A DNA stretch of 64,000 nt from an uncultured bacterium (GCA_964576535.1 CAZNWB010000004.1:10597-74596); one strand, 5' to 3'. Shown: positions 20,815-58,962, counted from the stretch's first letter. Numbers and translations are program-made. The notes: generated by a model not told the origin, from the sequence alone.

Positions 20815-21087
20815 TTACGCCTTCCGGTATACCTCCCGCCGATGACCGATCCTCACAATCAGCACCACCAGTGCATCGTCCCGGATCTGGTAGATGATCC
20901 GGTAATCGCCCGCCCTGATTCTGTAAAGGCCCTTCTCGCCCGCGAGGCTCTCCACGCCGTGGGGCCGAGGGTTCTCCGCCAAGGCGTCAATCCGTGGCCG
21001 AAGGCGTCGGCGAACGTCCTCGGCGAGGGCACGGAAGCCCCGATCCGCAGCCGGTGCGAATTCGATACGATAGCGTCGCGGGGCCAC
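20815..21087 (-). CDS. RelE/ParE-family type II toxin
   Basis: 90 aa; LYRIRAGDYRIIYQIRDDALVVLIVRIGHRREVY. Confidence 0.85.
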   Translation of the reverse strand: MAPRRYRIEFAPAADRGFRALAEDVRRRLRPRIDALAENPRPHGVESLAGEKGLYRIRAGDYRIIYQIRDDALVVLIVRIGHRREVYRKA

Positions 21088-21342
21088 CTAAAGCCCCAGG
21101 TCCTTCTTGATCTTCTCCCAGGGGATCGTGCCCTTCCGGCCAGCCTCCTTCAGGGCTGCTCGCGCCGTCTCCAAATCCAACCGGTCCTCCAGCCTCTGCA
21201 GCAATTCGAGGTCCTCCATGGGGACGATCGCCGCGAGGTCTTTCCCTCGGCGATGGAGGACGACACGATTCTTCCCGTAGGCTACCCGGTTGAGGGTGGT
21301 GGCGAAATCATTCCTGGCTTCGCTCGCCTTGACACGTGTCAT
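21088..21342 (-). CDS. Phd/YefM-family antitoxin
   Basis: VKASEARNDFATTLNRVAYGKNRVVLHRRGKDLAAIVPMEDLELL. Directly abuts the toxin gene. Confidence 0.8.
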   Translation of the reverse strand: MTRVKASEARNDFATTLNRVAYGKNRVVLHRRGKDLAAIVPMEDLELLQRLEDRLDLETARAALKEAGRKGTIPWEKIKKDLGL

Positions 21343-21516
21343 TGGACGTCTCCTGTGCAATTTGTCTGTATCGTACAATACAGCGCATTTGGCGGATAGT
21401 CAAACTTCCTGCGCGCTCCCACCGCTCAGGCCGTGGTGCCCACCCGTCGTCTGTGAAAGCCCCCAAAACACGAAGGCCCTGACCTGTGTCTGGCCAGGGC
21501 CTGCTGGAGGTTCGCT

Positions 21517-21593
21517 TGGTTGCGGGGGCTGGATTTGACCCAGCGACCTTTGAGTTATGAGCCCAACGAGCTACCGGACTGCTCCATCCTACG
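21517..21593 (-). pseudogene. Degenerate duplicate of tRNA-fMet (pseudo-tRNA)
   Basis: Aligns with the tRNA at 22531..22607 plus ~50 nt of its downstream hairpin. Acceptor 5' strand is CGTAGGA instead of CGCGGGG (2 mispairs), and the T-loop is GTCAAAT instead of TTCAAAT. Confidence 0.7.
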
Positions 21594-21682
21594 AAGCGAG
21601 ACGAGCTCAGCTAAGCGGAGGGTGCTAAATTCTTTGGCTGGGAAAGGACATCCGGCAGGAGATGTCCCTGGGTAGAGATCCT

Positions 21683-22078
21683 CTAGCGATTGGCGAGGAC
21701 CGAGAATCCCTTTCCACTAATCAAGCGTTCATCTGCGGTGACCAAGGTCAGGTGAAGAAGCCTGGCGGTCGCCGCAATCAGCCTGTCGGCCGGGTCTCCA
21801 TGAGGAAGACGGACATGGTGTGTTTCCAGGGCGACCTCATGCGTGATCGGGGCTTCCCTTAGTGGAGCCTTCCTCATAGCCTCTTGGATCCAAGCGTCAA
21901 CGGCTTTGTCCAGGAAAACCCGTTTCCTCTCCACGAGCATCACGAGTTCCCATGTGCTAATCGGCGAGAGCCAGAGCTCGTTCTCCTTGCTCACGATCGC
22001 TTTCGCCACGCGGCCGGTCAAGTTTTCCGGGGCGAGCAAGCTCCAGAGCCAGATGTGCGTGTCGAGGAGGAGTTTCAC
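21683..22078 (-). CDS. vapC: VapC (PIN-domain) type II toxin
   Basis: The GTG start overlaps the antitoxin stop (GTGA). VKLLLDTHIWLW...GDPADRLIAATA...LVTADERL carries the PIN acidic residues. Confidence 0.85.
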   Translation of the reverse strand: MKLLLDTHIWLWSLLAPENLTGRVAKAIVSKENELWLSPISTWELVMLVERKRVFLDKAVDAWIQEAMRKAPLREAPITHEVALETHHVRLPHGDPADRLIAATARLLHLTLVTADERLISGKGFSVLANR

Positions 22079-22317
22079 GATCGAAGCGCCTCCCATTCTC
22101 GTCGGTTTACGACAGGAGACACGATATCGCCCTTGATCTGTCCGCTCGACTTCATGACCCCCAGCCAGTCTTCCGGCCGAGGAAGTGCCGAAGGAGGTAC
22201 AACCTCCGCCACGGGTTCGCCAAACCGGGTGATGAGGACGGGTTTCCGCGTCCGCCGTACTCGTTCGAGGACCGCCAGACAGGTTGCCTTGAATTTCGAG
22301 ATTGCGATCTTTTCCAT
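22075..22317 (-). CDS. Phd/YefM-type antitoxin partner of VapC
   Basis: ATG after GGGAGG. MEKIAISKFKATCLAVLERVRRTRKPVLITRFGEPVAEVVP. Confidence 0.8.
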   Translation of the reverse strand: MEKIAISKFKATCLAVLERVRRTRKPVLITRFGEPVAEVVPPSALPRPEDWLGVMKSSGQIKGDIVSPVVNRREWEALRS

Positions 22318-22480
22318 TTGGAAGAACCTCCCAGCCTGTGCGCAAACTACCATAGTCAAAGACCATGGTCAAACCATTTCTGGGGCTGCAACGAGCCGTC
22401 ATGGTCGGCGAGGGGCCGTTCGAATCGCCAGGTGAATCGGCGGACCTCACACGAATGGGTTCCGTGAACGTAGGCCCCCT

Positions 22481-22530: not shown

Positions 22531-22607
<77 letters not shown>

Positions 22608-22665: not shown

Positions 22666-22811
22666 AACCGCCAAGGCGCCAAGAACGCCAAGGCCGGGCC
22701 TCATTGGGGGGAAGAAACGGAACTTCTGAAGGCCCCAGGAAGGTGTCTTCGGGTTTTCCCGTGGGGAGATCGGAAGTTCGTATTCTTGGCGACCTTGGCG
22801 TCTTGGCGGTT
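22666..22811. repeat. Periodic hairpin element (core CCAAG / CTTGG)
   Basis: Left arm CCGCCAAG GCGCCAAG AACGCCAAG. Right arm TTCTTGGC GACCTTGGC GTCTTGGC, ending at the rlmN stop. Confidence 0.7.
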
Positions 22812-23872
22812 CAACCCTTCTCCTTTTCGGTGCGGAGCATGCCGCAGGCGGCGGAGATGTCCCAGCCGCGGCTTTCCCGGATCGTGGCGGTGAGGCCGGC
22901 GTCGTGGAGGATCTGTTGGAAGCCCTCCACCCGTTTCCGAGGAGAGGGCTTATCCGGCAGGTCGGGGGCGGCGTTGAACGGAATCAGATTGATCTTGCAG
23001 CGAATCCCCCGCAGGAGGCCGACGAGACGCTTCGCATCTTGCTGTGAGTCGTTCACCCGGTCCAGCATCACGTACTCGAAGGTCAGCCGCCGCCGGTTCG
23101 GCAAGGGGTAGTCGCGGCAGGCCTTCAGCAATTCCGCAATGGGCCAGCGCCGATTGATGGGCATGATCTGGTCGCGTACCTCGTCGGTGGTCGCGCTGAG
23201 GGAGACCGCCAGGTTGACATTCAGGCCCGATGCCGCCAGCTTCTGGATGCCCGGCACGTGTCCCACCGTGGACAGGGTAATCCGGCGCGGGGAGAAGCTG
23301 GCGCCGCGCTCGTCGCCCAGGATCCGGAGGGCCCGCTCGACCTGCGGGAAGTTCAACAGGGGCTCCCCCATCCCCATGAGGACGATGTTGGAGATCCGCT
23401 CGCCTCGCTCCAAACGGTCTTGCAAGGCCAGCATCTGCCCTACGATCTCCCCGGCTCTCAGGTTCCGGCGGACGCCCATCAGACCTGTCAGGCAGAACCG
23501 GCACTCCAGCGGGCATCCCACCTGGGTCGAGATGCATGCGGTCAGGCGATCCTCATCGGGGATCAGGACACTTTCGATTTCCTCCTCATCGGCCAGCCGA
23601 AGGAGGTATTTGCGGGTCCCGTCCAGCGAGCGTTGGACCTGCGCCACCGCCGGCCGGCTCACCCGGGCGCGGCTGGCCAGTGCCGCACGCAGGGTCCGGG
23701 ACAGGGTGGTCATGACCTCAATGTCCAGGGCGCGCCGCGCGTGCACCCAGTGGAAGACCTGCCGTCCCCGGTATCGGGGCTGGCCCAGCTCTGCCAGCAG
23801 GGCATCGACCTCCGCGGGCAGCAGGCCCACGAGATCAATCCGGGAATCGCTCATCGTCCTCCCCCCAGGCAT
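22811..23872 (-). CDS. rlmN: 23S rRNA/tRNA (adenine-C2)-methyltransferase RlmN (radical SAM)
   Basis: YRGRQVFHWVH...STQVGCPLECRFCLTG...GMGEPLLN...CGML. Confidence 0.9.
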   Translation of the reverse strand: MPGGRTMSDSRIDLVGLLPAEVDALLAELGQPRYRGRQVFHWVHARRALDIEVMTTLSRTLRAALASRARVSRPAVAQVQRSLDGTRKYLLRLADEEEIESVLIPDEDRLTACISTQVGCPLECRFCLTGLMGVRRNLRAGEIVGQMLALQDRLERGERISNIVLMGMGEPLLNFPQVERALRILGDERGASFSPRRITLSTVGHVPGIQKLAASGLNVNLAVSLSATTDEVRDQIMPINRRWPIAELLKACRDYPLPNRRRLTFEYVMLDRVNDSQQDAKRLVGLLRGIRCKINLIPFNAAPDLPDKPSPRKRVEGFQQILHDAGLTATIRESRGWDISAACGMLRTEKEKG

Positions 23873-24489
23873 GCCCGGATCCCTCCCACCTCATCCACGG
23901 CCGCCGCAGGAGCCTTCAGGCCGAGAATCCCGTCCCGCAGGACCTCTCCCTCGTCGAAATATGGGATCCCCCACAGCAGAACGTCCTTGATCGCGCAGCG
24001 CATCTCCAGCCCGGTCACGTCCACCCGCCGATCAATGACGGTCAACAGGTGCGGCTCGACGTACGCCTTGGCCTCTTCCAGGCTGCGGGTGCATCCCACC
24101 ACGAGCGCAGGACTCGCGGGCTCCAGGCGGACTCGCTTCTCGGTATAGATCATCCCCGGATCCCCGAAGTAGGAGGCATTGTGCAGCTCGAACCCCGTAA
24201 CGTAGACCCACTCGACCGGTGGGATCTGTCGAGCCAGGGCCTGTCGTTCTGGATCCTCCCAGGAGGTCGCATACTGCACGCGGAAGGCCCACAGGGGAAG
24301 ATGAAGAACGGGTCGGTCCGACGAAAGAGCGGCCCGAGCGGTGGCGGCCTGGCGCCCCACGAATGCCTCCCCCACCACTTCATGTGGAACCTGGCAATCG
24401 TTGCACCAGAACACCACATCCTGCTGCAGACCGCGGAAGCCTCCGCCGCACCGCGGACACCTGAGGGCCAGGACCGTGGCGGCAGTCAT
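23851..24489 (-). CDS. Zinc-ribbon protein, paralogue family with the next two genes (no TM)
   Basis: CPRCGG...x12...CNDCQ, then HLPLWAFRV and LLWGIPYF motifs. Overlaps the rlmN start. Confidence 0.6.
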   Translation of the reverse strand: MTAATVLALRCPRCGGGFRGLQQDVVFWCNDCQVPHEVVGEAFVGRQAATARAALSSDRPVLHLPLWAFRVQYATSWEDPERQALARQIPPVEWVYVTGFELHNASYFGDPGMIYTEKRVRLEPASPALVVGCTRSLEEAKAYVEPHLLTVIDRRVDVTGLEMRCAIKDVLLWGIPYFDEGEVLRDGILGLKAPAAAVDEVGGIRACLGGGR

Positions 24490-24490
24490 G

Positions 24491-25612
24491 TCACCCTCTC
24501 CCCCGGGACCCCCGTCCAGGGCCCAGCAACCACTCAGCCAGCCTGGCGCTCAACTCACCAACTGGGCCGCCTCCCCAGTCCCCCTGCATGATAGGCTGGG
24601 TGGCCTCTTCGTCAAGCAGGACCTCGCCCCCCTGACGGAACACGCTCCACCCCACCCACGCCAGGAAGAGCGCCACCGCACCTCCGACCCCGAGTGCAAG
24701 CAAAGTCCCCAAAGCACCGGTGACCCAACCGGGCGCGTTGCCCAGGGCGAGGCCGACCCCAAAAGACTCCCGTGCCAGGCGGCCAAAGCAGAAGGCTGCG
24801 AGGGCCAACGCCCCCATAGCGATCGCAGCCGCCCGCCGGATCTCGACCGGAGCCCTGGCGCGAAGCACCATCCCCGTCACCCCATCCACCGTGATCTCGT
24901 ACGGACGGCCCGCATGCCGGTAGCGCGCATGCCATATCGGGTAGTACAAGACCTTCAATCGCTGTTCCACGACACCGGTGCGATCGCCTTTGACCTTGAT
25001 GCGCCGCTGGGAGTCACCGGCGAATCCGACTGGCGGCTTCGTCGGGACGAAAACGGTCGCACGGGTTTGCAGGACCACGAGGTCGAACGGTTCCAAGGGT
25101 GCTGGTGTCGGCCCACGCCGCATGCCCTCCAGCCGAATCCGGTCCACTCCAAGCTCGGACAGGTCGCAGCCCGGCCCGATCCGCACATACTCCTGCTGGA
25201 TGACCCGCGTGTCTTCCTTCTCCACGCGAGGCTCCAGCAACCAGCGCTGGAAGTCTCGGTTCTGCTCTCCATCCTCCGTCGGTGGCGGCGGGGGCTTGGC
25301 CCCTTCCTTGAGAAGGAAGGTTCCGAGACGGGCGCCGGTGAACTCGTAAAAGGGCACGTAACAGAGGGAGATCTCCTGGATGCGCCCGTGCGCGCGAAGG
25401 TTCTGCGGAAGCATCGGCCGGGTCAAGAACTTCTGGGCAGCACTCAGGGCTGCCTCCCGGCTGATGCCGAGGGTGATCGCGTATCGGGGCATCGCCCCTG
25501 GGATCAACGCCAGGCTTCCATTACCGCAGTACCGGCAGATCACTACCCGCTGCCCCTCTGCGAGGGAGAGCGTCCCGCCACACGAGGGACAACCGAGATG
25601 GGTCAAGGGCAT
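24491..25612 (-). CDS. Zinc-ribbon membrane protein (paralogue family)
   Basis: CPSCGG...x12...CRYCG; CYVPFYEF and VLYYPIWHARY motifs; 2-3 C-terminal TM helices. Confidence 0.65.
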   Translation of the reverse strand: MPLTHLGCPSCGGTLSLAEGQRVVICRYCGNGSLALIPGAMPRYAITLGISREAALSAAQKFLTRPMLPQNLRAHGRIQEISLCYVPFYEFTGARLGTFLLKEGAKPPPPPTEDGEQNRDFQRWLLEPRVEKEDTRVIQQEYVRIGPGCDLSELGVDRIRLEGMRRGPTPAPLEPFDLVVLQTRATVFVPTKPPVGFAGDSQRRIKVKGDRTGVVEQRLKVLYYPIWHARYRHAGRPYEITVDGVTGMVLRARAPVEIRRAAAIAMGALALAAFCFGRLARESFGVGLALGNAPGWVTGALGTLLALGVGGAVALFLAWVGWSVFRQGGEVLLDEEATQPIMQGDWGGGPVGELSARLAEWLLGPGRGSRGRG

Positions 25613-25647
25613 CGAGACCTCAGCCTATGGGGATGTTCCCGTCAAAA

Positions 25648-25734
25648 GCGTTCGGTGGTTCGGGAGTTCGGGAGTTCGGTTGTTCCCGGTCAGAGTGAAC
25701 CACCGAACAACCGAACCCTCGAACGACCGAACGG
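25648..25734. repeat. Period-8 hairpin element (core TTCGG / CCGAA)
   Basis: GCGTTCGG TGGTTCGG GAGTTCGG GAGTTCGG TTGTTCCC GGTCAGAG TGAACCAC CGAACAAC CGAACCCT CGAACGAC CGAACGG. Confidence 0.8.
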
Positions 25735-25748
25735 TCTGAATCTCTCCT

Positions 25749-26495
25749 TCACACCCCAGCCCTCCCCTCACCACCGACGACTGCCCAATACAGTGCCAGG
25801 GCGGTCAGGCCGACCGCTACCCCCGCGAGCCAAAACGGCGGGATCAGCACCGCTTCCAGGAACACGACCAAGAAGCCCGCGATCCCCGTCGTGAGCGTGA
25901 TGGCCTGGGGCGCGGACGATGCGCGGACCCCCGGAGGCATCCGTTCCGGATAGACGCGACCTGAGCAAGCCTCTACGTTGACGGCAAGCCGGCCGGTGCC
26001 GACAGTCACGTGGACCTCGTAGAACGGCACGTGGACGAGGTCTCCCGCGGCCGCCGAGGCGGCGCCCTCGCCGTAGACGCGGTTGCGGGCCGCGACCTCC
26101 GCTACGGTCGGCTCAACGAGACGGGCTGTCCCGACGATCGACGGGTCGAAGATCAGCTGCTCTGCATCGGGGGTCGGAAGATCGGTCCAGCGGGCCTCGA
26201 GCGCCGACCAGGCCGGAAAGAGTCGCGGGCGCCCCTGAGACGCGAAGCGCCAGAAGGGCTGGTATACGAGGTGGGGTGTGGAAATGTCAGATGGGGCGGG
26301 CAACCCCTGGGCGTCGCACCAAAGCCGTAGCAGAGGTGGGATGTCGGCCGGCCCATGGCGTGGACGGTAGAGCATATGCAGGCGGACACCTGTGAGATCC
26401 AGAACCAGGCTCGTCCCACAGAAGGGACAGCCGAGGAAACCGGTGGTCTCCTGGAGTTGGATCTCACCGCCGCATTGGGGGCAAGGAAGCTTCAC
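25749..26495 (-). CDS. Zinc-ribbon membrane protein (paralogue family)
   Basis: CPQCGG...x13...CPFCG; LVYQPFWRF and [11 protein letters not shown] motifs; two C-terminal TM helices. GTGA overlap with the SPFH gene. Confidence 0.65.
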
Positions 26496-27640
26496 GGCGT
26501 GGGCGGGCTGATGGCCTCACCGCAGTTGGTGCAGAACTTCGTTCCCGGAGGCACCACCGTGTTGCAGTGCCGGCAGCTGACCACTGCTTTCATATTCACG
26601 CCGCAGGCGGGGCAGAATTTGGCCTGGGCGGTGACGTTCTTGGCGCAGTGCGGGCACTTGTTGGCCACGACCAACTGGTGCCCGCAGGAGGGGCAGAACC
26701 GCGCCGTCAGGGGGACTTCGCCGTGACATTCCGGGCAGTTGACCGTGCCGCGCTCCCGGATGCGCTGGGGATCCGCGTCCTCGGGCCGCAGGGTCTGGTA
26801 GATCATCCCGGGCAGCATGAGACCCAGCCCCGCCCCCAGTCCCACGCCCAGCCCACCGGCGGCCTGGCCTCCCCCGGCGCCGACGCCCGTCGCGGCATCC
26901 CCCAGGGCCTTGGCGGCTTTGAATTTCATGAAGTCGTCCAGGTTACCGACGGCGGCCATGCCCGACCGCTCGTCAAACATCCGCTGCACGTCGGGTGGCG
27001 GCGTGATGGCGTTGATGAAGAAGTCGATCAGTTCGAGCCCGTAACGCCGAAAGTCGTCCTGCAGCCGGGTCTTCACCGCCACACCGATCTCGTCGTACTG
27101 CCTGGGGAGCTGAAGGATCGTGTCCACATGCTCTCCCAGAAAGTCGTTGAGCCGGGAGACGATCACCTCGCGGAGGTACCCTTCCACCTGGTCCGAGGTG
27201 TACACCGCTTGCGTGCCCACCAGGCTGTTGATGAGGAGCAGCGGCTGCGTGACCCGTGCCGTGAAGATCCCAAAGGCGCGCAGGCGCACCAAGCCCAGTT
27301 CCTTGTCCTTGAAGGCCACCGGCTCCTTCGTCCCCCACTTGAGTTCGGTGAACACCTTGAGGTTGACGAAGTACGCCTCGGCCCGGAAGGGGCTGGTGAA
27401 TCCCCAGGGCAGGCTGAGGAGTTTGGTCACGATCGGCAGGTTCAGGGTGGACAGGGTGTGGCGCCCCGGTCCGAACACGTCCAGACCCTTGCCGTCGCGG
27501 AAGAAGACCGCCGCCTGGCTTTCCCGGACGATGAGCTGGGCGCCCAGCTTGATGTCCGCGGACCCTTCCTCCGGGATGCGGTGGACGAGCTGCCGACCAT
27601 CCGGGTCAAACCACTCGATGATCTCCATGAGAATGGCCAT
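26492..27640 (-). CDS. SPFH/band-7 domain protein with C-terminal multiple zinc ribbons (COG4260 / YdjI-like)
   Basis: ATG at 27640 ([12 protein letters not shown]...). SPFH-like core; C-terminus CPECHG..CPSCG..CPHC..CPACG..CRHC..CTNCG. Confidence 0.8.
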
Positions 27641-27657
27641 GTCGCCTCCCGCCGTCC

Positions 27658-28209
27658 CTACAGGCTGCGCGCCACCCTGTCTCGATCTGCCACGCGGTGT
27701 TCGAAGTCCTGGAGCACCGCTTCGGCGGCGTCGAGCGCCTGCGGGAAGGCCGTGTCGTCGGTGGCAGCGTCTGCCAGGGTCAGGAGCGGCTGCCGCAGCC
27801 GGGGCGTCACCTCCAGCAGGTCCAGGTCGAAACGGTGCAGGGCCGCGAGCTCCGTCTCCCGGATCTTGTGGAGGTCGAAGACTCCGGCAAAGCCGTAGCG
27901 GGCATGCCGGACTTGATCCGCCAGGGTGCTCACCCGGCGAGCCACCCGGTCGAGGGTCGGCAGCCGATCCAGGCGGCCGGCCTCGGTCAAGCGACGCTCC
28001 GCTCCCTGGATGATGCGGGTGAGGTCCGTGAGCCGATCCGCCAGGTGCGCCCGCACTTGCTTGTCCGTCTCCCGCAGGCCTTCGCGGTCCTGGTAGCGTC
28101 CAATACCCGGGACAAGCCGGGCCAAACGCTCCAGCCGCTCTGCCCAGCCGGAGGCATCCGCTGATCCTGAAACTGGCGTGCCCAAGTTCGGGTCTCCCCG
28201 CAAATCCAC
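27658..28209 (-). CDS. Hypothetical helical protein, first gene of the SPFH operon (start uncertain)
   Basis: Arg/Leu/Asp-rich helical ORF. The listed N-terminus (to 28239) runs into the repeat at 28209-28289, so a later start is likely. Confidence 0.45.
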
Positions 28210-28289
28210 AATGCAAAACCAACAACTGACGACCGACAACTGGGTAATCGATGCCCGGTTTTCAGTTGTCCGTTGTCAGTTTTGCATTG
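28209..28289. repeat. Periodic hairpin element, 7-nt period (core ACAACTG / CAGTTGT)
   Basis: CAATGC AAAACCA ACAACTG ACGACCG ACAACTG, then loop, then CAGTTGT CCGTTGT CAGTTTT GCATTG. Confidence 0.7.
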
Positions 28290-54844: not shown

Positions 54845-54960
54845 AATCGGGTGATTGGGTGATTGGGCACGTGGGCGATTGGGTGATTGGGGGAACAGGC
54901 AACCTGGCAACCGGTAAGCCCAGTTGCCAAGTTGCCCAGTTACCGAACTGCCGAACTGCC
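54845..54960. repeat. Period-8 element filling the whole permease/SBP spacer (tandem GATTGGGx units plus GGCAA/TTGCC hairpin)
   Basis: AATCGGGT GATTGGGT GATTGGGC ACGTGGGC GATTGGGT GATTGGGG GAACAGGC AACCTGGC AACCGGTA AGCCCAGT TGCCAAGT TGCCCAGT TACCGAAC TGCCGAAC TGCC. Confidence 0.85.
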
Positions 54961-57797: not shown

Positions 57798-57890
57798 AAC
57801 CGTTCGATTGTTTCCGCCTCTGGCGGATTCGGTCGTTCGGTGCTTCCCCGTGAACAACCGAACACTCGAACAACCGAACTCCCGAACGCC
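57798..57890. repeat. Period-8 hairpin element (core TTCGG / CCGAA) between E1-beta and E2
   Basis: ...GGATTCGG TCGTTCGG TGCTTCCC CGTGAACA ACCGAACA CTCGAACA ACCGAACT CCCGAACG. Confidence 0.8.
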
Positions 57891-58879: not shown

Positions 58880-58962
58880 CCGTTCGACCGTTCGGTGGTT
58901 CGGTCGTTCGGGCGTTCCGTTTTGAACCATCGAACACCCGAACGATCGAACTACCGAACGCC
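58880..58962. repeat. Period-8 hairpin element (core TTCGG / CCGAA) between E1-alpha and E1-beta
   Basis: CCGTTCGA CCGTTCGG TGGTTCGG TCGTTCGG GCGTTCCG TTTTGAAC CATCGAAC ACCCGAAC GATCGAAC TACCGAAC. Confidence 0.85.

Follow-up and report, generated by a model that had tools for sequence, protein, structure and literature searches.

To our knowledge, the only soluble SPFH protein to have been studied is Bacillus YdjI (SamI), which is encoded by the last gene of the B. subtilis membrane-stress operon pspA-ydjGHI (renamed pspA-samGHI). Here, we describe a locus of five genes that resembles this operon, in a window of 64,000 nucleotides (nt) from an NC10 (Methylomirabilota) bacterium. The window is the whole stretch of DNA analysed, and all coordinates are positions within it. 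The genes are labelled A to E, with A the 5'-most; A encodes a helical protein, B an SPFH/band-7 protein, and C, D and E zinc-ribbon proteins. In Bacillus, YdjG carries zinc ribbons, a YpeB-related NTF2-like domain and a transmembrane segment (PMC11237479; Ravi et al. 2024). YdjG and YdjH are required to bring the soluble YdjI and PspA to the membrane, and YdjI is mostly membrane-associated via its partners (PMC8581546). Loss of SamI deregulates SamG-SamH signalling (bioRxiv 10.64898/2026.02.06.704340). The Bacillus operon is further characterised by Sigma-W and alkaline-shock induction and by an SPFH protein that is recruited to foci at the membrane. Other soluble SPFH subfamilies, SPFH8 and SPFH9, have been listed only as undocumented (Hinderhofer et al. 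2009).

We propose, with a confidence slightly better than even, that genes A to E encode a PspA-independent SPFH module, a distant relative of YdjGHI/SamGHI in which YdjG-like proteins dock an SPFH oligomer. The proposal is based on homologies, domain layout, predicted topology, gene coupling, co-conservation and a fusion of genes D and E. A literature search found no description of this composition, in which PspA and YdjH are lacking, a helical partner is present, the YdjG-like component is triplicated or fused, and the SPFH protein has three ribbons. No paper describing the module was found either, in keeping with a preliminary description of the locus, made by reading the DNA alone, which regarded the function of such SPFH and zinc-ribbon assemblies as essentially unknown. 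Through its kinship with YdjI and YdjG the module is of an already known kind; its composition appears to be new.

Protein B is an SPFH protein of the YdjI type

The preliminary description had taken the product of gene B for an SPFH protein like COG4260 and YdjI, and this assignment holds. B matches the Pfam family Band_7_1 (PF13421, COG4260) with an E-value of 1.7e-63 and 214.5 bits, against a gathering cutoff of 24, and also matches the general Band_7 model (PF01145, E 8.9e-17); its similarity to HflK is weak. In BLASTP, B and YdjI (sequence taken from the B. subtilis operon record) align colinearly over their full length, with 25% identity over 324 columns (E 9e-28), and the alignment takes in the low-complexity linker and the first zinc ribbon. 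A hidden Markov model (HMM) of B orthologues scored YdjI at 112 bits, as against 460–508 bits for true orthologues from other phyla; B therefore represents its own subfamily inside Band_7_1. Orthologues with 52–55% identity to B were found in other phyla, while a plasmid search with B returned only other Band_7_1 subfamilies, without the partner genes. Among solved structures, none was detectably related to B by sequence.

The C-terminal part of B matches the double-zinc-ribbon model DZR (E 3.5e-21). Four ribbons had been counted here at first, but the six CxxC pairs form three. Ribbons one and two do not vary from lineage to lineage, and the third is missing in one locus outside NC10 (L021). 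Between the SPFH domain and the ribbons lies a glycine-rich apolar segment, whose columns G257...M279 are invariant in the NC10 and non-NC10 orthologues of B from different phyla. This segment may serve for contact with the membrane or act as a glycine zipper. No transmembrane segment was found in B, in which no 19-residue window reaches a Kyte-Doolittle value of 1.6.

Membership in the SPFH superfamily and the idea of an oligomeric scaffold link B to HflK/C-FtsH, stomatin-NfeD and flotillin FloT/FloA-NfeD2. B could thus be a scaffold for proteolysis or quality control, of the HflK/C-FtsH or stomatin-NfeD type, with its client protease encoded elsewhere. The Band_7 match and the weak HflK similarity fit such a role, as does the annotation of the orthologues as 'membrane protease subunit (stomatin/prohibitin family)'. 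However, B has neither the N-terminal transmembrane segment nor the hairpin anchor of those systems, and no NfeD or protease gene was found among the operon proteins or the co-conserved neighbours. HflK/C and stomatins have a long coiled-coil wall, for which the short post-SPFH region of B leaves no room: the domain ends at residue 229 and the ribbons start from residue 302. Since protease domains are lacking, we consider a protease scaffold improbable.

Kinship of the zinc-ribbon proteins C, D and E

Proteins C, D and E each open with CPxCGG...CxxC, have one ribbon apiece and contain two aromatic xP(F/L/I)(W/Y) motifs. Hydrophobic C-terminal transmembrane hairpins are found on C and D, while E has no transmembrane segment. 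These traits had all been read from the DNA beforehand (an opening ribbon and two hairpin-like aromatic motifs in each protein, and terminal transmembrane helices in two of the three), and each was borne out. Broad alignments show little or no variation at the four cysteines and at the prolines of the two motifs. The AlphaFold2 (AF2) model of C, with a predicted local distance difference test score (pLDDT) of 84, comprises a zinc ribbon, two units made of a helix and a long beta-hairpin, and two transmembrane helices. The unit has the topology of a helix plus an antiparallel sheet, present twice, and the aromatic motifs fall within the two long beta-hairpins. Because the ribbon and the alpha/beta domain of C and D precede the only transmembrane segments, they are predicted to lie on the cytoplasmic side. 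In loci that, as here, encode the three proteins separately (split type), transmembrane segments are carried by the C orthologues of all other lineages checked and, at the C-terminus, by the D orthologues in 8 of 9 loci outside NC10; none of the E orthologues checked has one.

An exhaustive profile search yielded a C family of 1262 cluster representatives at E-values of up to 1e-3. Its members are about 250 amino acids (aa) long, and their invariants are the four cysteines and the prolines of the motifs YxPFW and LxHxP. Only one of 60 members touches Pfam PepSY, and weakly so (E 0.007). Outside their ribbons, C, D, E and the fusion protein described below are covered by no Pfam or NCBIfam model, and neither is A.

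In pairwise BLASTP, the similarity of C, D and E is at the level of the ribbon only. When NC10-only profiles were compared with hhalign, D matched C with a probability of 94.8% (E 4.9e-8, 207 columns), while E matched C and D in the ribbon only. With broad profiles, D matched C at 99.9% (E 1.9e-34) and E matched C at 98.1% (E 6.8e-14), the latter in an alignment of 151 columns that takes in the entire soluble part. On this profile evidence C, D and E are true paralogues, as the preliminary description had it, with the qualification that the kinship of E beyond its ribbon is seen with the broad profiles and neither pairwise nor with the NC10-only ones. Secondary alignments of the first with the second unit reached 80.7% (hhalign, broad profiles), and the profiles suggest that the alpha/beta units arose by internal duplication.

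The same profiles lead to YdjG. With the exact database entry 'PspA localization factor YdjG' from B. subtilis as the target, the C-family profile aligned at 98.6% (hhalign, E 6.5e-16) over 218 columns, covering YdjG residues 50–338, in agreement with the published domain description (PMC11237479). YdjG was matched by the HMM of D at 5.4e-11 and by that of C at 1.5e-7; E taken alone matches YdjG in the ribbon only. Profile searches thus relate the three zinc-ribbon proteins both to each other and to YdjG.

Public gene calls often begin C at an internal methionine, giving 208-aa products without the N-terminal ribbon (for example L105 4550-5176). We regard C as misannotated short in such cases, because the GTG at which it truly starts overlaps the B stop codon.

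Comparison with pspA-ydjGHI

Taken together, the match of B to YdjI and that of the C family to YdjG uphold the earlier impression that the locus resembles pspA-ydjGHI. Both systems encode, in one operon, a soluble Band_7_1 SPFH protein with C-terminal zinc ribbon (YdjI, corresponding to B) and a second type of protein (YdjG, corresponding to C and D), in which an N-terminal zinc ribbon is followed by P(F/V)W-motif alpha/beta units and, at the C-terminus, by a membrane anchor. The differences are several. The Bacillus operon has PspA and the TPM-domain protein YdjH, whereas this operon has neither: among the operon proteins, no match was found to the Pfam families PspA_IM30 or TPM_phosphatase. 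The YdjG-like component is single in Bacillus but triplicated here (C, D and E), with one copy soluble. YdjG has two zinc ribbons, while C, D and E have one each; YdjI has one ribbon, while B has three. The SPFH gene comes last in Bacillus and before its zinc-ribbon partners here, so that the gene order is reversed. Finally, the locus has an extra conserved partner, the unrelated helical bundle A. The partners of B are of the YdjG type only, with no counterpart of YdjH.

Protein A is a helical bundle unrelated to PspA

Gene A had first been read from position 28239. Its homologues, however, begin near residue 19 of this longer open reading frame (ORF), and the 175-aa product that starts at the TTG at 28185 matches independently called proteins exactly; this later codon is the true start. 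A is soluble according to a transmembrane scan, and its AF2 model (pLDDT 85, predicted template modelling score 0.80) consists of five helices.

A has no Pfam match. It matches the NCBIfam model LIMLP_15305_fam (NF047596), a Leptospira family of unknown function, over nearly the full model length (E 5.7e-7, 29.6 bits), and its homologues from other lineages do so with 32–62 bits and E-values down to 8e-17. Because these scores are far under the 210-bit cutoff, A is only a distant relative of this family and not a member. A profile search against PDB sequences was negative. When the model was compared with the PDB by Foldseek, no match had an E-value below 0.001 and no PspA, Vipp1 or ESCRT-III structure was recovered; the structures returned were generic helical proteins (the soluble domain of IncA, V-ATPase subunits and designed helical proteins). 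The hhalign probability for A against B. subtilis PspA was 0.09%. The first gene of the operon is thus not PspA-like, as had been proposed.

The module is conserved in NC10 and recurs in other phyla

The closest homologues all come from Candidatus Methylomirabilota (NC10). The order RuvX-MltG-TPR-A-B-C-D-E-RlmN was found in 13 NC10 genome loci, 12 of which keep A-B-C-D-E with a gene in each position, two of them with a frame-disrupted B or D; the other, L008, is without A. The start-stop overlap of B and C is conserved in the NC10 loci. Across these loci the identity of C falls to 45%, while that of B stays at 73–86%.

Gene A is absent between the TPR gene and B in L008 (4829-8370, a genome locus) and also in L029 (5141-8936, a metagenome locus), with B-C-D-E kept in both.

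A multi-gene module of unknown function that is patchy across phyla might also serve in anti-phage defence or abortive infection, with the SPFH and zinc-ribbon proteins detecting the infection and then damaging the membrane. One weak PADLOC match, between the zinc ribbon of C and the candidate system PDC-S64 (E 0.009), points the same way. Yet none of the five proteins has a significant match in PADLOC-DB 2.0, and PADLOC and PHROGs gave nothing beyond ribbon noise for the operon proteins. No enzymatic effector domain was found, and Foldseek recovered no viral structural relatives of the C model. Moreover, the fixed housekeeping context (ruvX, mltG and rlmN) in the 13 NC10 genomes, together with the 73–86% identity of B, is the pattern of a vertically inherited core gene. 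For these reasons we consider a role in defence quite improbable, slightly more so than a protease scaffold.

Outside NC10, seven loci were reached via distant homologues of C, and all seven keep the order C-D-E, usually with overlapping stops and starts. B stands immediately upstream of this triad in L017, L019 and L021, and the full A-B-C-D-E set is present in L021. A metagenome scan by alignment to B gave 80 loci, which collapsed to 68 non-redundant groups. Enough upstream sequence was available in 57 groups, and in 47 of these A directly precedes B. Enough downstream sequence was available in 44 groups: 32 have a single gene in which D and E are fused, eight have the split form, and four have neither. 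The fusion protein is about 490 aa long; its N-terminal half is D-like, its C-terminal half is E-like, and both have a ribbon and motifs of their own. Since gene fusion is classical evidence of joint action, D and E are likely to act together. According to the names of identical proteins, fused-type loci belong to Thermodesulfobacteriota/Deltaproteobacteria and Solirubrobacterales; their B is annotated as 'SPFH domain-containing protein' only. Further uncultured bacteria have the fused-type module as well.

Compared with the NC10 locus, the fused-type module has orthologous A and B (B 51–67% identical) and the same D-like and E-like halves, ribbons and motifs. It differs in that the partner is one polypeptide and no C gene is present, whereas in NC10 and a small number of further lineages C, D and E are separate proteins, with transmembrane anchors on C and D. 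The triplication of the zinc-ribbon component that had been described therefore holds for NC10, while the commoner form elsewhere is the single D-E fusion. All-against-all clustering of neighbouring ORFs revealed no co-conserved family besides A, B and the zinc-ribbon partner or partners. These neighbourhoods show a three-component module, in which A and an SPFH protein of the B type are joined by a YdjG-like partner that takes the form of a soluble D-E fusion or of split C, D and E. By its co-occurrence with B, A is a core co-conserved component of this module and not an incidental first gene. The arrangement is far from accidental: the gene order of the preliminary description is shared by 13 NC10 genomes, and other phyla have the module too.

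No recognisable C/D/E-like gene was seen downstream of B in L059, L063, L086 and L098. In L059 and L063, B is followed by a large ORF with weak similarity to TPR profiles, which may be an alternative partner.

Gene coupling, repeat hairpins and flanking genes

All five ORFs are co-directional, and they were confirmed as the minus-strand genes first described (Table 1). The start codon of C overlaps the stop of B in the tetranucleotide GTGA, the stop of D is 1 nt from the start of E, and E extends with its 3' end into rlmN. Between A and B there are 17 nt, with GGGAGG immediately before the start codon of B. Coupling had been claimed on the basis of overlaps; this stands for B/C, D/E and E/rlmN, but C and D are uncoupled here, with a gap of 136 nt that holds a hairpin resembling repetitive extragenic palindromic (REP) elements. 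The tight coupling of C-D-E, plus that of B-C in NC10, suggests a stoichiometric complex. A scan for sigma-70 promoters and terminators gave no convincing signals inside the operon, and Rfam detected no known RNA within it.

Gene E may be co-transcribed with rlmN. A nucleic-acid-linked or regulatory role, in which the ribbons bind DNA, RNA or the translation machinery, would fit this coupling. The ribbons give weak matches to zinc ribbons of the TFIIB/RpoP/S27e type, and DNA binding has been raised for the YdjG ribbon (Popp et al.). Against such a role, the ribbon matches are generic and all under family cutoffs, no helix-turn-helix or other nucleic-acid-binding domain was found, and C and D are predicted to be membrane-anchored. 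In addition, rlmN adjoins E solely where the remaining NC10 neighbours are present as well, and the same holds for the adjacency to ruvX; rlmN is NC10-specific context that lies outside the module. Because this adjacency is confined to NC10-type loci, we regard a nucleic-acid role as the least probable of the readings considered.

Table 1. Position of genes, domains and hairpins in the 64,000-nt window
Feature	Position	Strand	Description
Gene A	27658..28185	minus	175-aa helical-bundle protein, TTG start; start from homologue alignment and exact match to called proteins
Gene B	26492..27640	minus	382-aa soluble YdjI-type SPFH/band-7 protein
SPFH (Band_7_1) domain of B	26954..27583	minus	aa 20-229; Pfam match
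Glycine-rich apolar segment of B	26798..26887	minus	aa 252-281, GxGxGxGAGxGxxLPGM; between SPFH domain and ribbons
Three tandem C-terminal zinc ribbons of B	26522..26737	minus	aa 302-373; six CxxC pairs
Gene C	25749..26495	minus	248-aa YdjG-like protein, GTG start
Zinc ribbon of C (N-terminal)	26418-26483	minus	
Two alpha/beta units of C	25947-26390	minus	
C-terminal transmembrane hairpin of C	25761-25910	minus	
Gene D	24491..25612	minus	373-aa paralogue of C with large central insert
Zinc ribbon of D	25526-25591	minus	
Two transmembrane segments of D	24638-24841	minus	
Gene E	23851..24489	minus	212-aa paralogue, soluble
Zinc ribbon of E	24394-24459	minus	no transmembrane segment
rlmN	22811..23872	minus	NCBIfam TIGR00048, E 1.7e-117
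REP-like hairpin	25650..25732	.	inverted CCGAACNN octamers in the C-D gap; minimum free energy (MFE) -66.6 kcal/mol, z -3.5
Long hairpin	28209..28289	.	36-nt arms, between TPR lipoprotein gene and A; MFE -53.5 kcal/mol, z -5.1

The hairpin in the C-D gap belongs to a dispersed REP-like element, in which tandem octamers stand in inverted orientation. The CCGAACNN octamer pattern has 18 matches in the window, where 0.59 are expected, and further copies of the element lie at 54943-54956, 57827-57887 and 58882-58959. Several NC10 loci have no C-D gap. Since several NC10 relatives are without the copy that lies in this gap here, that copy is a lineage-specific insertion; it could affect the stability or polarity of the mRNA. 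The long hairpin upstream of A, composed of ACAAC/CTGAC-type repeats, probably represents a terminator or a REP element at the upstream boundary of the operon; it overlaps the ORF extension with which A had earlier been thought to begin. The upstream neighbours of gene A are a TPR lipoprotein gene, mltG and ruvX.

Just downstream of rlmN, at 20815-22450, two toxin-antitoxin-like pairs were noted, judged from ORF reading only. In one, the toxin is RelE/ParE-like and the antitoxin Phd/YefM-like; the other consists of a PIN/VapC-like toxin and its antitoxin. They are bracketed by tRNA genes at 21520-21593 and 22534-22607, and the pairs between the tRNAs may be a small mobile insertion.

A docking model and a soluble alternative

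We infer the physical contacts, the membrane recruitment and the physiological role of the module as follows. B would oligomerise via its SPFH domain, exposing the glycine-rich apolar linker and the three ribbons. C, D and E, each contributing a cytoplasmic zinc ribbon and two alpha/beta units, would constitute one hetero-oligomeric receptor, with C and D tail-anchored in the cytoplasmic membrane and E as a soluble subunit. In NC10, the receptor would provide B with a docking site on the inner membrane face and organise it there, or would itself be restrained by oligomeric B. A may be a helical-bundle partner or regulator of B; it takes the operon position of PspA, with an unrelated fold. By analogy with SamGHI, the output would probably be membrane or envelope homeostasis, or stress signalling. 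The receptor model is favoured because in Bacillus YdjG and YdjH bring YdjI and PspA to the membrane and because SamG-SamH signalling is deregulated when SamI is lost.

Several observations weigh against this model. In Bacillus two-hybrid experiments, the contacts of YdjI were YdjH (TPM) and PspA, while YdjG contacted YdjH (PMC8581546). When B. subtilis PspA and YdjH were used in tblastn, nothing was found in the window or in any fetched locus; together with the negative Pfam result, this also agrees with the earlier statement that the locus has no PspA/IM30 gene. Three C-D-E triads stand without an adjacent B (L014 8001-10575, L023 8001-10611 and L024 8001-10269), so that the gene for B would lie at another site in these genomes, or the triad can work alone. 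In Foldseek, the C model had no match at E < 0.001 in the PDB or among viral structures; the weak matches that were obtained (E 0.7 or above) were monellin-type small alpha/beta proteins and 4exr. Finally, neither the ~490-aa fusion protein nor B has a transmembrane segment, which leaves the module in most lineages entirely free of them. As the partner has no transmembrane segment in most lineages, membrane docking is not a general property of the module.

The last of these observations leads to the main alternative: a cytoplasmic ring or cage of B that works together with A and a zinc-ribbon partner, the transmembrane anchors being a secondary, lineage-specific addition in NC10. B and A are soluble, and so is the commonest partner, the D-E fusion of 32 of 44 loci. 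Nevertheless, the one relative that has been studied, YdjI, is for the most part held at the membrane by its partners, every split-type C orthologue carries transmembrane segments, and the invariant glycine-rich segment of B could touch a membrane. We therefore judge a wholly soluble assembly unlikely, although less so than the roles in proteolysis, defence or nucleic-acid binding, and retain the docking of B by YdjG-like proteins as the preferred reading for NC10.

Implications for the SPFH superfamily

More broadly, the combination of A, a ribboned B-type SPFH protein and a YdjG-like double-ribbon partner may represent an undescribed, multi-phylum, PspA-independent system, and maybe the ancestral core of SamGHI. 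The fused and split forms of the partner would then amount to a switch between a soluble and a membrane-anchored state, and A and the tandem alpha/beta unit would be two new families. We put this wider claim forward tentatively, with a confidence somewhat short of even.

The SPFH superfamily organises membranes in all domains of life, and few of its members are as poorly understood as the soluble ones. For this superfamily, the locus shows that SPFH proteins of the YdjI type and proteins of the YdjG type form an old and widespread pair, which is independent of PspA and YdjH. It also brings in A, a second conserved partner so far untouched by any study, and it supplies profiles for families without Pfam or NCBIfam models. 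The natural D-E fusion predicts which subunits touch, and the contrast between split, membrane-anchored and fused, soluble partners offers a direct handle on how an SPFH scaffold is recruited.

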